The notes: generated by a model not told the origin, from the letters alone. A DNA stretch of 64,000 nt from a virus (IMGVR_UViG_3300028030_000008:1-64000); one strand, 5' to 3'; shown: positions 42,851-48,410, counted from the first letter of the stretch. Made by a program: numbers and translations.

Positions 42851-43555
42851 ATGAAACTTACTATTCAGCAAGACTTGTACGCAGAAGACCCGCTTACCGA
42901 ATGGGACAACCCCTTTCGTTTTATCAGCAACCACAAAGACTACTATACAAGTAGGCGTAACGTTACAAACGCGCACGGCGACTCCGTGTACGATAAAGAC
43001 GGTGAACCGATCGGTATTGACGATTTAGACGCAATGGGTAAATTCTTTGAAGTTGAAAGATATGTTGTTGTCCCCGTAAGAGCGTATATGCACGGAGGAA
43101 TTTCGCTTTCTACCGGGTACGGTTATCCGTATAACGATGTGTGGGACTCTGGAACTTTCGGCTGGTTGTATGCTTCACCAGAAGATATTCGTAACAACTT
43201 CAACGCAAAACGCGCTTCTAAGAAAATGAGAGAGACGTTTACCCAAATGATGAAGTCGTTTGTCGAAACATGGGACGACTACTTCACCGGGAATGTCTTT
43301 TGGTTTTCCATCGAAGACGACAATGGGGAAATCAAAGACTCTTGTGGCGGTTTTTACGGCGACGTTGAAAAGTCCGGTATAGAACATCACGTTTCAGAAG
43401 AAGCATACGAAGCCTTGCTATGCAATGACCGTAAAGATATAGGAGGTAGCGAAGGATGGGGATTTTACATTGAGTATCAGTCCCCAGAGGAAAGAAACGA
43501 AGCAGATGCGCTACTCGAAGCAATAATCGGAACGACTTCCGCAATAGTTATCTAG
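42851..43555 (+). CDS. Conserved phage protein
   Basis: HGGISLS...WDSG..G...DSCGGFYG. Confidence 0.75.
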   Translation: MKLTIQQDLYAEDPLTEWDNPFRFISNHKDYYTSRRNVTNAHGDSVYDKDGEPIGIDDLDAMGKFFEVERYVVVPVRAYMHGGISLSTGYGYPYNDVWDSGTFGWLYASPEDIRNNFNAKRASKKMRETFTQMMKSFVETWDDYFTGNVFWFSIEDDNGEIKDSCGGFYGDVEKSGIEHHVSEEAYEALLCNDRKDIGGSEGWGFYIEYQSPEERNEADALLEAIIGTTSAIVI

Positions 43556-43896
43556 CAAACAATTATGCGTCGGTATAGCGGGATAATAATATACCTGCCT
43601 GTCCTAGAGACAGCGGCCTATCAAGTATTATATCAAGTGCGGTGGAGGGTAATCACCCGAAGAAGCTACACAAGACGAATATACGGATACCATCTCGGCG
43701 AGAAACCGGGGCGTATAACAAGTCGCGAATAACAAGAGGAAATGCACATGCTGCTTATCTCGAATCTTTTACATAGCATATACTTTTACTGCGTTATGGT
43801 GCCGAAGGCGGTTGTATTCGCCATACGCAACCCACCGAAAAAAGTACAGCCATATACCAAACTTCCCCAATCTAGGGAACTTTCAAAGGAGAACAC

Positions 43897-44220
43897 ATGA
43901 GTAAAAAGAAATTTGTCGTGACCGTCCCATTAACACGTGAGCAATGGTTTACGCTGATTAACGTTGCAGACAAACGCGGTTTATCCGTTTTTGAGCTTAT
44001 CGAGGACTTTGCGGACAGCCTAAACGCGAAAGAAGAAGACAAAGACATATACGTTGTAAACGCCATCAGGTCAATAACCCTCGCGGAAACATACGAGGTT
44101 CTCGCCAGCAATGAAGGAGAGGCCATTGAACTCGTAGAGGACGGCGACCCAAGTGTTATAGAAATTCGTTCCAGCTCAAAAGATGGCAGTCTCTATATTC
44201 TTGACGCCAAAGCTAAATAA
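43897..44220 (+). CDS. Hypothetical protein (RHH-like N-terminus)
   Basis: VTVPLTREQW..L...ADKRGLSV.ELI. Confidence 0.6.
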   Translation: MSKKKFVVTVPLTREQWFTLINVADKRGLSVFELIEDFADSLNAKEEDKDIYVVNAIRSITLAETYEVLASNEGEAIELVEDGDPSVIEIRSSSKDGSLYILDAKAK

Positions 44221-44324
44221 GTAACATAAAACACCGCTAGTTTGCCCTCAAAACAACACATTAGCCCGCTGCACTGTATGCAGTAGAATTTGTGCGTAAT
44301 AGTCCATCATGGTATACTTAGCAC

Positions 44325-44870
44325 ATGAATACAGTGATTGGAAAGTGTAAAGAGTGCTTCAAAAACACAGCGCTGAACCAAGATGGACTTTGCAAAAAAT
44401 GCCAACTCGAAACGGTAGACTCTTTCGAGATGGCAGAAATAAGAGCGAAACTTCTGCGCTTCTATTACAGCGAGTTTGGCGCAAAAAGCGTTATTGCTAA
44501 TTGGCAAAAACTCGCCGACAATCTCTCCCGTTTAGTAAAGAGAGATAAAGCATGGACAGCGAGGTACATTAGGAGTATAGCAAACGGGGACAAAGGCTTT
44601 CGTCGTATTCCAGCGCAATTAAAACAAGCGATAGAAGGCTACTCTCCAAAGATTGTATTCACCGATGGGTTTGCTGTTGAAAATACGGTAAGTAAATACC
44701 AACTTCCGGTTGGCTCAATCATCCTCGGTAAACCACGCAAGTGTAAATGGAGAGACTGCAACGTATGGTTCGTCCCGAAGTGGGACAGTCAGCTATACCA
44801 CACAAAAAAATGCAAAAAGCTCGCTCGAAACGAGCGCAGAAAAAAGCAAAGAGTACAAAAGAGATTCTAA
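44325..44870 (+). CDS. Putative DNA-binding protein with Zn fingers (leaderless)
   Basis: TTGTGC-17-TATACT, 6 nt, then ATG; CKEC/CKKC and C-terminal CKWRDC..YHTKKC. Confidence 0.7.
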   Translation: MNTVIGKCKECFKNTALNQDGLCKKCQLETVDSFEMAEIRAKLLRFYYSEFGAKSVIANWQKLADNLSRLVKRDKAWTARYIRSIANGDKGFRRIPAQLKQAIEGYSPKIVFTDGFAVENTVSKYQLPVGSIILGKPRKCKWRDCNVWFVPKWDSQLYHTKKCKKLARNERRKKQRVQKRF

Positions 44871-44920
44871 CTTTTGTGCTTCATAATTTGTTATGAGGTA
44901 TATTTACGGTCAATGAATTG

Positions 44921-45282
44921 TTAGCTGGCTACGCGCTAGAGAGGAGTGGAATAATGAGCGTTACAATTTTGGAAGTTTTACAAAATGCAGACCATAACAT
45001 CAACGCTACGCATCCTGTACAAATTGAAATGGGAAAAGAGCAACTAAAAAATGCTATTGTCCTGCTGGAAAAAGGATATGATATTGATGCGATTTTTGAT
45101 TACATTGTAGAATCATACGGTAGTGTTGAAGATGCACCAGAAGCAGTAGTCACAGAACGCGCCAGCTAACAACCCGTTGTACGCGAAAAGCTATCAAGCC
45201 ATACCTCATAGCTAATTCGCCTACAACCCAACTGCGATAGCGGCGCAATACGGCCAACCCGCGATCGCGTAAACTCTGGCCG
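44921..45282 (+). mobile_element. Integron-type gene cassette 1
   Basis: Starts G^TTAGCTGGC (44920); R'' side GCCAGCTAAC (45161-45170) is its exact 10-nt reverse complement. Confidence 0.8.
44954..45169 (+). CDS. Cassette-borne hypothetical protein (71 aa)
   Basis: GAGGAG RBS; stop TAA inside the R'' box. Confidence 0.75.
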   Translation: MSVTILEVLQNADHNINATHPVQIEMGKEQLKNAIVLLEKGYDIDAIFDYIVESYGSVEDAPEAVVTERAS

Positions 45283-45288
45283 TTATAT
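45164..45288 (+). other. attC site 1 (125 bp)
   Basis: R'' AGCTAAC, 5 nt, L'' GTTGTACG ... L' CGTAAAC, 7 nt, R' GTTATAT; extrahelical base at L'' position 4. Confidence 0.8.
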
Positions 45289-45730
45289 TACTCAACTAAT
45301 AAGCAAAAGGAGATTAAAAATGTCAGTAGCAAGCGATTTAATTGAACGAATGGAAGCAGAAACAGGTCAGCGTATTGATGCCAATGATGGTAATAATTTG
45401 GCTATGGCTGGCCTGCTCGGAGCAATGTCTCGGCTAATGGGGAAGTCGCCGTCAAGTTACACTGAACGTGATGATGTTGCAGTCGGAGTGCTTATCAGGC
45501 ATCAAATGTCCCCGGAATGGCAGCGAGAGAAAAAAGGTAAACAAATGTTGGCGTCTTTGGGCAAGTGGAATGTCGCCTGACGTTTTGAAAGCTATTGCCG
45601 GATAGTCGTAATATAACCAGGGTATGCAGGCGAATTGCTAGACCTGCTGCCCTCGAAGCAAGTGCGTTTTACAAACTTATCAAACAAGAGGCATCAGACG
45701 ATTTACCCGCAATCGCCTGATCACCCTCTG
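45283..45730 (+). mobile_element. Integron-type gene cassette 2
   Basis: Starts G^TTATATTAC; R'' side GTAATATAAC (45608-45617) is its exact 10-nt reverse complement. Confidence 0.8.
45320..45580 (+). CDS. Cassette-borne hypothetical protein
   Basis: AAGGAG RBS. Confidence 0.7.
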   Translation: MSVASDLIERMEAETGQRIDANDGNNLAMAGLLGAMSRLMGKSPSSYTERDDVAVGVLIRHQMSPEWQREKKGKQMLASLGKWNVA

Positions 45731-45736
45731 TTATAC
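45611..45736 (+). other. attC site 2 (126 bp)
   Basis: R'' ATATAAC, 5 nt, L'' TATGCAGG-CGA[A]TTGC ... GCAATCG-L' CCTGATC, 7 nt, R' GTTATAC; two extrahelical bases. Confidence 0.8.
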
Positions 45737-45763
45737 CGCTACGGCGGGAAAGGAAATGAAGCA

Positions 45764-46171
45764 ATGTCAGCAGGTATGAATATTGGCGATAGAGAAGATT
45801 ATTGGCAATCTTATCGCTTCCCTACTACCCTTGATAAAGATGCCCCGCTGCATACATCTCCGCATTACACCGACAAACGTTTCAATAAAGAACAAGCAGT
45901 TTTTGGGAAACATCCAAAATCGCGGTATGGACACGACAATCTGAAATATGATTATTCTGATCGTCTTTGGCAATGGGATTATGACAAAGCTGAAAAATCC
46001 GTTGAAGTTGCAAACGCCAGCGGCGCGACATTAAGAAGTTGCAAACGGTACGAGGCCTATCTGTCTGCATACTTTAATAAGCCAATCGAGATTAAACACA
46101 TTATTGCAGGTGTCAATCGTGGTAATGGTTATCCGTATTGTGTATTTGGCTACAAAAGCGCAGACAGTTAA
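45764..46171 (+). CDS. Hypothetical protein in a third, attC-less cassette position
   Basis: ATG 34 nt after the R' start; YDYSDRLWQWD...NRGNGYPY. Confidence 0.7.
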   Translation: MSAGMNIGDREDYWQSYRFPTTLDKDAPLHTSPHYTDKRFNKEQAVFGKHPKSRYGHDNLKYDYSDRLWQWDYDKAEKSVEVANASGATLRSCKRYEAYLSAYFNKPIEIKHIIAGVNRGNGYPYCVFGYKSADS

Positions 46172-46194
46172 TAGCTTCAACCTTAAAATTTCAG

Positions 46195-46235
46195 CTATCC
46201 ACAGGTTATCCACAGAAAGAGGTGAGTTATCCACA
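46195..46235 (+). promoter_or_regulatory. Three co-oriented DnaA boxes
   Basis: CTATCCACA 46195, TTATCCACA 46206, TTATCCACA 46227. Confidence 0.75.
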
Positions 46236-46243
46236 GGCAAAAG

Positions 46244-46271
46244 TTGCAAAATAGCACACAATTCCTATAAT
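46244..46271 (+). promoter_or_regulatory. Sigma70 promoter of the tRNA cluster
   Basis: TTGCAA-16-TATAAT. Confidence 0.65.
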
Positions 46272-46284
46272 ATCAAGTAATCAT

Positions 46285-46356
46285 TGCGGAATAGCTTAAC
46301 GGTAGAGCGCCAGAATCATAATCTGGATGTTGCAGGTTCAAATCCCGCTTCCGCAA
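46285..46356 (+). tRNA. tRNA with CAT anticodon (Met/fMet or Ile2)
   Basis: TGCGGAA/TTCCGCA acceptor, GCTT/GAGC D-stem, CCAGA-ATCATAA-TCTGG, GG-TTCAAAT-CC; no encoded CCA. Confidence 0.85.
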
Positions 46357-46436
46357 CATGACCTTAGAGATAACCGAGTTCAATAAGGTCATTCTAATCT
46401 AAGTTGAACGGACGGTGACAGCCGGAGAGACGACGT

Positions 46437-46557
46437 GCAGGCGTAGCAGAATGGGTATATGCCATGTCGAAAGACGAGGGGATGTCACGGACGGGTGTTC
46501 GGATGGGTTCGAGTCCCAGCTTCTCCTAGTGTAAGGTTAGATTCCTTGCCGCCTGTA
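46437..46557 (+). ncRNA. tRNA-like RNA with a nested second T-arm
   Basis: GCAGGCG/CGCCTGT acceptor, D-like arm, GTAAGG-TTAGATT-CCTTGC, internal TGGG-TTCGAGT-CCCA. Confidence 0.55.
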
Positions 46558-46572
46558 TTTAAATAAACCGAA

Positions 46573-46725
46573 GATGGCAGCGGCGTGTGGGAAACGCTAT
46601 GACTGGGAGTAGCAAATGGTTGGTGTCACTACCCTGAAACGGACCAACGTGAAACGCGAGACTGGTAAAACAGTGCCGTACAATGGATTGACCAACCAAA
46701 GCCGGTTCAAATCCGGCCTGCCATT
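46573..46725 (+). ncRNA. tRNA-like RNA with a large multi-hairpin insert
   Basis: GATGGCAG/CTGCCATT acceptor, GCCGG-TTCAAAT-CCGGC, GGTTGGT/ACCAACC closing the insert. Confidence 0.6.
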
Positions 46726-46744
46726 CAAAAAAGCAACTGAAAAT

Positions 46745-46966
46745 TTGCAACAACAAATGTAACATGCTATAATTTCTTTAAGCCGTTGGCCCCGGCTAAA
46801 GAGACAAAGCGAACAATAGACTTCTGTTTTTCTATAGGTGTTGGTTGTTTGTTGGTTTTAGCTGAAAAGCAAAAAGCCTTTGTCTCGCAACCAACAATGG
46901 GCCTAACCAACATCTATAGAAGCGCAGAAGTTTTTTTATTGCCAAAAGAAAGTCCGGGGAGGCAAA
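46745..46966 (+). ncRNA. C4/CI-like antisense RNA module 1 with its promoter
   Basis: TTGCAA-17-TATAAT; b1 GGCCC / b' GGGCC and a1 GAGACAAAG / a' CTTTGTCTC; long hairpin 46820-46931; a2 GAGGCAAA over the next SD. Confidence 0.6.
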
Positions 46967-47173
46967 ATGCAAACAGTGCAGCTAAAATCAATCACAGTAA
47001 TTGCAAACAAGCAAACCGTAGAAATTCCTCGTCATGAATTAAAGGTTGTTGATGGTGGATTTGAGTATGCCGACTTATTTATACCAATCCCAGAACCAGT
47101 AATGACAACTAATAAATACCCCGGATTCGTAATGTCTCTCAAGGAAGCTCTACAATGCAAAAAGAGTTACTAA
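46967..47173 (+). CDS. Small protein downstream of C4-like module 1
   Basis: GGAGG RBS overlapping a2. Confidence 0.65.
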   Translation: MQTVQLKSITVIANKQTVEIPRHELKVVDGGFEYADLFIPIPEPVMTTNKYPGFVMSLKEALQCKKSY

Positions 47174-47379
47174 TAGGATGACAATATATTACTAAGAATT
47201 TAGACGAAAAACCGGATGGTTAGCGGTCGGTGAATCCAAGTCCTAAAATCGCTGTGTGGTTGAGAGTACCACTACGTAGGTAGAAAACAATACCGACAAA
47301 AACTGCCTACACACTGAGTATCTATAAATTCCTAAAATGTAAATTTGACAATCAAGTAATAAGGTGATAAAATATGGGT

Positions 47380-47607
47380 ATGAAGCCAAGTTCGCATAAT
47401 CCGACTTTTTCAAACGTCACGCCACAACAGGTACTTAAATTGCAAGAATTTGCACTAGAACTAACCGGAAAAAGAAGTGCGTCTGCGTTGCTCCGCTTAA
47501 TCGCAGATGACGGTTTTGTAACAAGTGCGCCCAATATCGGTATATCAATGGCGACACCGTTTGACGGTAAACAAAAAAGAGTGCTGGTCGTCGAGCGGCC
47601 AGAATAA
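47380..47607 (+). CDS. RHH-like small protein, paralogue A (own promoter and terminator)
   Basis: TTGACA-17-TAAAAT at 47345-47373; 'LKLQEFALELTGKRSASALLRLIA'. Confidence 0.7.
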   Translation: MKPSSHNPTFSNVTPQQVLKLQEFALELTGKRSASALLRLIADDGFVTSAPNIGISMATPFDGKQKRVLVVERPE

Positions 47608-47683
47608 GGCACGGCAGTCCTAATAGGGCTGTTTTTTATTTAACCACCCTAGATTTGACAAATAGGAACATAAGGTATAGAAT

Positions 47684-47911
47684 ATGTCTCAAATGAAAAC
47701 AACCATTTCCGGGCTAACAGAAACAGAAAAAGCAAAACTTGAACTCCTGTCATTACAGCTACTTGGCAGGGCAAACATGTCAGCACTGATACGCCACATA
47801 GCCAGTAATGGCGTCGTAAAAGATAAAGAAAGCATGAGCATGTCAGAATCGCTAAACGGGACTTTTGACGTTGGACTTAAAAAAGTGCTAATCGTAAAAA
47901 CACAAGCCTAG
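47684..47911 (+). CDS. RHH-like small protein, paralogue B (own promoter)
   Basis: TTGACA-17-TAGAAT at 47655-47683; 'AKLELLSLQLLGRANMSALIRHIA'; may start at ATG 47693. Confidence 0.7.
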   Translation: MSQMKTTISGLTETEKAKLELLSLQLLGRANMSALIRHIASNGVVKDKESMSMSESLNGTFDVGLKKVLIVKTQA

Positions 47912-47969
47912 CGCGGTGCGTCCGCCGACATACTGAGGCTTGTTTTTTATTCACAAAGCCCCTGTTATA

Positions 47970-48410
47970 CCAACAATAAGCCCGGCCCAACCGTCTCAGG
48001 GGAGATGAGTGGTCACAAATACCTGCAAACCAAGATGCTAACCGTGAGGGAACGCCACCGGGAGAGGCCGGAAAATTCTTGGAAAGACGCGGAAATGCGA
48101 GAGTGTGGACAATTAGCTTGAGAGTGCCACGACATGCAGCGGATAAAGCGATGAAACTTGGAGATAGGCCCCAGGTGGAGCAGAGGGAGTTCTGGTAACA
48201 TCAGGAATGATGTGCAATGTAAATCCGAGCCGGGGTTGTTAAACCAGAAGCCTGAAAAATAGTGGCGGATAGCCTGTGCAAATCGCACAGGGGAGCATGG
48301 GCTCAGTGTGTCTATCGAGCAATGTGACATCAAAACATAAAAGAGTTCTTTCAGTGATGTGAAGAATGAACATCACAGGAAGGGTTGGCAAATGCAGTTT
48401 TTGCCAACCA
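47970..48410 (+). ncRNA. Candidate large structured ncRNA
   Basis: ~450 nt with no credible + strand ORF; closing helix AACAA..CCCGGC / GCCGGG.TTGTT; several perfect hairpins. Confidence 0.4.

Follow-up and report, generated by a model that had tools for sequence, protein, structure and literature searches.

A two-cassette attC cluster without an integrase in an uncultured tailed phage

The analysed stretch of DNA, here called the window, comprises the first 64 kb (64,000 nucleotides) of an 85,699-bp virus record in IMG/VR (IMGVR_UViG_3300028030_000008), for which CheckV estimates a completeness of 90%. The gene content is that of a tailed phage, with a Mu-type portal, a large terminase, a major capsid protein, an SbcC-like ATPase and a DNA methylase. 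The sole sequencing run that contains the record whole is labelled as a hydrothermal vent metagenome, which may be its source; none of the runs listed for the stretch is recorded as RNA. The array that we describe lies in a block of small plus-strand genes, between a 181-aa gene and a promoter with tRNA-Met. The region contains the following features:

44325-44870: 181-aa gene, left flank of the array
44864-44919, plus strand: spacer left of the array
44920-44929, plus strand: left junction and start of cassette 1, G^TTAGCTGGC, reverse complement of 45161-45170, predicted crossover at 44920/44921
44921-45282, plus strand: cassette 1 unit
44954-45169, plus strand: ORF1, 71 aa, cargo of cassette 1, from the ORF list
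45164-45288, plus strand: attC1, 125 nt, with R'' AGCTAAC, 5 nt, L'' GTT-G-TACG..., L' CGTAAAC, 7 nt and R' GTTATAT
45282-45291, plus strand: boundary between attC1 and cassette 2, G^TTATATTAC, with its exact reverse complement at 45608-45617
45283-45730, plus strand: cassette 2 unit
45320-45605, plus strand: ORF2, cargo of cassette 2, family of about 95 aa, from alignment and three-frame translation
45611-45736, plus strand: attC2, 126 nt, with R'' ATATAAC, 5 nt, L'' TAT-G-CAGGCG-A-ATTGC, L' ending in GCAATCGCCTGATC, 7 nt and R' GTTATAC
45764-46171, plus strand: ORF3, 135 aa, after R' of attC2
46244-46271: strong promoter to the right of the array, ahead of tRNA-Met
46285-46357: tRNA-Met

Pfam and PHROGs returned nothing useful for the three cargo genes and their neighbours. 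The Rfam gathering scan of the window detected tRNA-Met only, and Rfam has no attC family. A blastn search of the INPHARED phage collection with the array region gave no match, and no relatives of the 181-aa flanking gene were found in viral contigs or metagenome contigs.

The two sites of 125 and 126 nt share one layout, which an earlier note on this DNA had correctly recognised as that of an attC site: R'', 5 nt, L'' with an extra G at position 4, 6 bp, an A, L', 7 nt and R'. The A after the 6 bp occupies the usual place of the second extrahelical base in real attC sites. The core motifs, RYYYAAC for R'' and GTTRRRY for R', are each matched at six of the seven positions, with AAC and GTT intact. 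Both sites are located downstream of their own gene in the canonical orientation, and they lie on one strand, separated by 323 nt.

Each cassette starts with the complement of its own end. The word GTTAGCTGGC (44920-44929) is the exact reverse complement of GCCAGCTAAC (45161-45170), in a match that extends to 12 nt, and GTTATATTAC (45282-45291) is the exact reverse complement of GTAATATAAC (45608-45617). Complementarity between the cassette start and its own R'' is thus 10 out of 10 in both cassettes, and each of the four words occurs once in the window. The same matches had been reported in the earlier note, with a numbering that agrees with ours to within 1 nt.

The cargo consists of small genes. 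As the earlier note had observed, the stop codon of ORF1 (TAA, 45167-45169) lies inside R'' of attC1. Pfam gave no match for ORF1 and PHROGs only a weak one, to an entry without assigned function; the relatives of ORF1, at 45-65% identity, are found in four viral contigs without an attC nearby. ORF2 has a frameshift: as read, it ends at 45580 after 86 aa, while the C-terminus of the family (GMSPDVLKAIAG) runs on in another frame to a TAG at 45603-45605, two bases ahead of GTAATATAAC (45608). The frame change is located in or near a GGG run at about 45553-45555, and fits decay of the gene rather than active use. No plus-strand promoter match better than 9/12 was found inside the cassettes. Hence, the description of one promoterless small ORF per cassette stands as to the promoters, with the amendment that ORF2 is broken. 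ORF3 follows GTTATAC and, as had been noted, has no attC behind it: neither of the models described below finds one there. It is either the gene that the cassettes were inserted ahead of, or a last unit that has lost its site. Its relatives are found in four GC-rich viral contigs, again without attC. In fact, all three genes have relatives without attC in other phages.

This anatomy alone is little proof, especially when very many windows are scanned. The bare attC geometry rule gave five matches in the genome, compared with a mean of 6.7 in simulated genomes, and exact 10-nt inverted repeats at 150-450 nt from each other occur at about 30 loci in 64 kb. Both features are therefore common by chance, and neither is significant on its own. 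Our own rough arithmetic from the inverted-repeat and geometry-rule rates gives a joint chance of about 3e-8 per window. The case rests mainly on the matches to covariance models, on the breakpoints seen in related phages and on those relatives that carry arrays.

We used two home-made covariance models, R1 and R2, which were run with cmsearch with filters off on 128 kb of searched sequence. For R1, IntI1 of plasmid R100 served as the query, leading to 80 integrase loci and 84 real attC sites that were selected by rule and fold; 61 of these 84 sites, located beside IntI1-like integrases, were aligned with the R and L boxes as structure. Model R2 was made from 39 environmental attC sites. With R1, attC1 was the best match in the window, at 22.5 bits (E 0.0076), and attC2 came fourth at 10.2 bits (E 3.9, noise level), where all E-values given here are rough because the calibration of the models was shortened. 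With R2 the order was reversed: attC2 was the best match at 16.9 bits (E 0.064) and attC1 the second at 12.8 bits (E 0.62, noise level). All four alignments run over the full length of the sites and end exactly as predicted, and the other weak R1 matches in the window skip the L box. The models gave no further scoring site in the rest of the phage genome. As controls, held-out real sites scored 28-66 bits with R1 and real sites of the environmental family only 17-36 bits with the same model. In view of the latter, the scores of the window sites are low, yet within sight of real divergent sites.

The models also bear on the sequence to the left of the array, where the earlier note had seen a half or degenerate site at 44864-44926. 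The spacer has no R1 or R2 match at E-values up to 10, and the candidate has a weak fold of -6.9 kcal/mol (z -1.4), so that we do not retain it. No attI-like or attC-like site is detectable with the two models left of cassette 1. The left spacer contains a 10-nt word at 44892 that is complementary to the inside of attC1 (45201).

The proposed folding of the bottom strands as attC hairpins was supported for one of the two sites. For the bottom strand of attC2, free energy minimisation yields an end-to-end attC hairpin of -20.5 kcal/mol. For attC1, the canonical fold of the R and L boxes reaches -16.5 kcal/mol versus -27.8 kcal/mol for the free fold, as competing internal hairpins are about 11 kcal/mol better. 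With each attC linked to the start of its own cassette, the form it would have in an excised circle, the free fold of both sites closes with a terminal stem of 10-14 bp. Among all 660 AAC...GTT candidates of the genome, attC1 had the lowest energy when the DNA was folded under constraint. In the same scan attC2 ranked third by energy per base among distinct places, and a terminator also ranked high. One further match to the geometry and energy of an attC, at 47851-47970, was rejected since it is actually the end of a gene with its terminator.

These data invite the question whether the two sites could be ordinary intergenic hairpins, such as terminators or elements of RNA processing or stability, with AAC and GTT ends and 10-nt complements that arose by chance. 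The chance rates given above speak for this explanation: the bare geometry is equally frequent in random sequence and 10-nt inverted repeats at such a spacing are common. The region is furthermore rich in structured RNA elements, and the terminator near 47900 also satisfies the geometry rule. Ordinary hairpins would not be expected, however, to be singled out with exact ends by two independent attC models among 128 kb, and the joint chance estimate argues against them as well. Other phages add three more arguments, which are presented in the next paragraphs: breakpoints at G^TT in related phages, a match to attC2 only in other flanks, and strong attC sites after homologues of ORF2. Taken together, we regard this explanation as highly improbable.

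Related phages were represented by contigs from two other sequencing studies, X2 and X3, which are about 85-95% identical to the window and were compared over positions 43000-48000 at 80% likeness. These contigs cover the flanks of the slot. In one contig from each study, the match to the window ends at 44923, with the GTTA of the cassette-1 junction. Beyond this point the X2 contig continues with unlike sequence that resembles a ribosome-binding site and start codon, and the X3 contig is 185 nt long versus a match of 123 nt that ends at 44923. Homology with the related phages restarts at 46177. A 348-nt X3 contig matches solely 45614-45735, which is attC2, in other flanks, and an X2 contig spans the attC1 stretch with small insertions and deletions. 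Hence, presence or absence at the level of cassettes is seen among related phages, in short assembled contigs. The cassette-precise variation asked for in the earlier note thus applies to the left boundary, where the matches break off in the GTTA of the G^TT junction (44923), and fails at the right boundary, where the edge at 46177 is not at an attC. Since the related phages carry other content in the slot, repeated exchange at the left G^TT is probable.

The family of ORF2, with 146 protein clusters at 60-79% identity, links the window to arrays in other phages. In the phage contigs L009 and L010, an ORF2 homologue with 69% identity is directly followed by a canonical 65-nt attC, which reaches 30 bits (R1) and 32 bits (R2), has the same R'' (AGCTAAC) as attC1 and has a 3' spacer of 6 nt. 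The ORF2-family unit of these contigs starts at GTTAGATGGC. In phage G001 (IMGVR_UViG_3300025030_000076; 80,305 bp, CheckV 100%), the ORF2 homologue is the first unit of an array with 12 co-oriented sites of 21-56 bits (R2). In this first unit, the initial GTTAGACCCC is exactly complementary to the R'' of the unit, within which the stop codon is also located. Another unit of G001 (L106:11396) starts with GTTAGCTGGC, the same word as cassette 1 of the window. We also considered whether attC2 might have decayed from coding sequence homologous to the long ORF of L009 and L010, and rejected this because the tblastn similarity ends by residue 80; the long ORF extension in L010 is a read-through across its own attC.

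Apart from the ORF2-family gene and one distant match to L010, the window shares no genes with L010, G001 and seven other ORF2-family phages. In seven phages other than L009/L010 and G001 the ORF2-family gene is found without attC, among ordinary promoters and terminators. In three unrelated phages, the ORF2-family cassette begins at GTTAG without a preceding attC, which looks like repeated site-specific insertion.

The earlier note had found no integrase in the window. This result extends to the whole record, as PF00589, TIGR02249 and PF00239 had no match anywhere in the 85,699 bp. Its suggestion that the phage might use a recombinase of its own from outside the window thereby loses ground, given that no tyrosine, integron-type or serine recombinase is found in the 85.7-kb record at an estimated completeness of 90%. 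At least two close attC sites without an integron integrase in the record correspond to a CALIN, a cassette array that lacks an integrase. The locus is not a complete integron, because it is without intI, attI-like site or Pc promoter.

The window sites also have a link to bacterial integrons. The L'-R' 17-mer that is conserved in the sites of G001 is carried by at least 120 metagenome contigs, many of which have two copies on the same strand, and by at least 120 IMG/VR contigs. Two contigs of this environmental attC family encode an integron integrase, with 54% and 48% identity to IntI1. The nearest Atlas clusters of that integrase are named integron integrase, with Pseudomonadota as the commonest phylum. 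The word GTTAGCTGGC is the second commonest R' word of the family. The arrays of these environmental sedentary chromosomal integrons (GYCYAAC...CGTGCAG...CTAACGCAARCCGTTRG) have in common with the window an R box of about 10 nt and the word GTTAGCTGGC, and the L'' design of the family (xxTGCAGGCGA) resembles that of attC2. In contrast to the window, the family has a conserved L'-R' 17-mer, and the window sites reach only 13-17 bits with its model. Also, two contigs of the family have an integrase, whereas the window is without integrase, attI and Pc. Sequence likeness of this kind gives the only hint of a host, which may point to Pseudomonadota-type integrons and not to the Chloroflexota named in the earlier note. 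HIP1 (GCGATCGC) was tried as a mark of a cyanobacterial host and set aside, as one copy in the genome versus 0.77 expected is too little. This single copy falls within attC1.

A recombinase of another kind might also have made the array, for example a Xer-like phage enzyme or another one, with its gene in the 10% of the genome that the record lacks or in another element; the likeness to attC would then be convergent or partial. Two details of the sites would suit such an origin, as both are unusual for sites of IntI. The 3' spacer is 7 nt long in both window sites versus 5-6 nt in 79 of the 84 real sites, 4 nt in five and 7 nt in none. Moreover, the extra base of L'' is a G on the top strand, which is the case in only 10 of the 84 real sites. 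The modest scores with IntI-type models go in the same direction. On the other hand, the word GTTAGCTGGC and the L-box design are common to the environmental attC family found beside true integron integrases, and the sister arrays of G001 and L010 reach up to 56 and 32 bits, respectively, with the model of the environmental family. In addition, none of the tested recombinase families (tyrosine, integron-type and serine recombinases) is present in G000, G001, which is 100% complete, or G002. We consider action of a different recombinase quite improbable.

We thus regard the two-cassette attC cluster without an integrase in this phage as genuine, by its anatomy, the models, the relatives and the breakpoints. 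Our preferred explanation, which we think is probably correct, is a short integrase-less cassette array (CALIN) in the accessory-gene slot of a tailed phage, where the cassettes were joined by a host IntI acting in trans. The slot between the 181-aa gene and the tRNA cluster would hold accessory genes. Each unit would comprise a single small gene, which lacks its own promoter, and a folded attC, and would originally have been a circle. The host would have supplied the integron integrase that joined such a circle into the phage DNA at G^TT, leaving the cassette start complementary to its own R''. The cassette genes would then be transcribed by read-through from upstream phage promoters. Host IntI in trans is plausible and the likeliest mechanism, and we infer that IntI did the joining, that it belonged to the host and that the sites still work. 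Counting against this explanation are the modest model scores, the 7-nt 3' spacer and the G in L'', the non-canonical folding preference of attC1, the lack of a detectable site ahead of cassette 1 and after ORF3, the frameshifted cargo gene, the relatives of all three genes that lack attC, and the shortness of the contigs that show the breakpoints.

Several observations are compatible with a more passive history, in which the attC cassettes are genuine yet a decaying relic. According to this alternative, a piece of an array was acquired by illegitimate or homologous recombination, and no integrase ever acted on the phage DNA; a bacterial cassette array or the array of another phage would have been the source. 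Absence of an integrase from the record would be expected of a relic, as would the frameshift in ORF2, the preference of attC1 for a non-canonical fold, and the lack of a site left of cassette 1 and behind ORF3. Such capture routes for attC clusters of phages have been discussed (PMC9892861). Against this history, the variable slot of the related phages does not begin at an arbitrary place on the left but at the GTTA of the predicted crossover. Furthermore, both cassettes have kept the perfect 10-nt match to their own R'', and GTTAG starts without a preceding attC occur in three unrelated phages. We consider a passive relic unlikely, and prefer joining by a host integrase.

T4-type phages have promoter-stem-loop 'mobile regulatory cassettes' that resemble the array in some respects, as small accessory genes of a variable early region are bordered by repeated hairpins and shuffled among relatives. 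They differ from the array in that they have early promoters and homology-driven recombination, and are not known to have AAC/GTT cores or L-box extrahelical bases. Moreover, their units are not known to have a start that is complementary to their own end.

Integrase-less cassette arrays in phages were described in 2023 by Qi, Rajabal, Ghaly, Tetu and Gillings in Front Microbiol, who found 17 CALINs in 10,705 phage genomes, some of them virulent (PMC9892861). Five of the six phage attC sites that they tested recombined with attI1 under IntI1 (PMC9892861). The rarity implied by the earlier note, which placed integrons mostly in bacterial chromosomes and plasmids, is qualified by these published CALINs in virulent phages. 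The kind of element was thus already known, and the window adds an example rather than a principle. As in the published phage CALINs, at least two co-oriented attC sites bound small genes and there is no integrase (PMC9892861). The window differs from them in that it belongs to an uncultured phage from a vent metagenome, known from sequence alone, and has long divergent sites of 125-126 nt with a 7-nt 3' spacer. To the published picture it adds evidence from other samples that the content of the slot differs from G^TT onward. Insertion of cassettes outside att sites by an integrase is reported for bacterial genomes in a preprint (bioRxiv 10.1101/2022.09.11.507474). Such insertion would explain a first cassette that begins at a plain GTT without attC or attI in front of it, the arrangement of the window, L010 and G001.

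A wider reading is conceivable, although we hold it tentatively and consider it rather doubtful. Different phage lineages might keep a fixed slot in which host integron integrases insert and swap small genes, with the ORF2 family moving between unrelated phages as a cassette. If so, phages would be regular members of the integron cassette pool and not accidental carriers. A phage gene of the ORF2 family would have become a cassette that travels with different attC sites, and the left G^TT would be an attachment site without attI or an integrase in cis.

The array described here favours the view that integron cassettes travel via phages besides plasmids and chromosomes. It is a concrete and testable example, in which the content of a slot differs between related phages from a defined G^TT, and in which one phage gene family is cassette-borne in some cases and an ordinary gene in others. 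Should integrases of the host indeed act on the DNA of infecting phages, the bacterial cassette pool would be open to phages as a source of accessory or counter-defence genes, and phages could ferry cassettes between hosts.

An array of attC sites far clearer than the two-site array in the window is carried by another phage, G001, and the ORF2-family gene sits in a cassette both in this phage and in a further phage contig, L010. The two features are as follows.

L106:10066-14451 (= G001:C1:44066-48451; IMGVR_UViG_3300025030_000076): attC array of 12 co-oriented sites, with scores of 21-56 bits under R2, the covariance model from 39 environmental attC sites
L010:5952-6346 (L009 has the same sequence): ORF2-family cassette, ending in a canonical 65-nt attC of 30-32 bits

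The genome hosting the 12-site array is an 80-kb phage (CheckV 100%), in which no recombinase was found. Two further loci, L099 and L101, contain the same array. The ORF2-family gene is the cargo of the first cassette in this array. In L010, the ORF2-family gene lacks a stop codon ahead of the attC, and its reading frame crosses the site to give an ORF of 166 aa. A tRNA gene lies downstream of this cassette, as it does in the window.

Compared with the family, the ORF2 frame in the window contains a frameshift within 45540-45605, near a GGG run at ~45553; either a genuine mutation or a mistake in the assembly could account for it. In the restored frame, the stop would fall 2 nt ahead of the 10-nt R'' word.

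At the right edge of the slot, the GTT of GTTAATAG (46167-46177) lies 10 nt upstream of 46177, the point where homology with related phages restarts. The slot's right-hand crossover may lie at this GTT. It overlaps the stop codon of ORF3. Beyond it, within 46195-46271, three TTATCCACA-like words (DnaA-box consensus) lie directly upstream of the best-scoring promoter match in this region (10/12), which is followed by tRNA-Met.

Within attC1, the HIP1 palindrome GCGATCGC (45261-45268) is the sole copy in the 85.7-kb genome (0.77 expected genome-wide), and its position may be due to chance. Furthermore, ATACCTCATA (45201-45210) in attC1 has an exact complement, TATGAGGTAT (44892-44901), on the left side of cassette 1. 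This complementarity is outside what the cassette model explains; it could be chance or a remnant of an older site.

A widespread family of environmental attC sites is recognisable by the 17-mer CTAACGCAARCCGTTRG. Scans recovered this 17-mer in at least 120 metagenome contigs (L107-L186 among those listed), two of which, L119 and L124, encode integron integrases. It was also present in at least 120 IMG/VR contigs (L227-L306 among those listed), and hence many IMG/VR records hold attC sites of this family.
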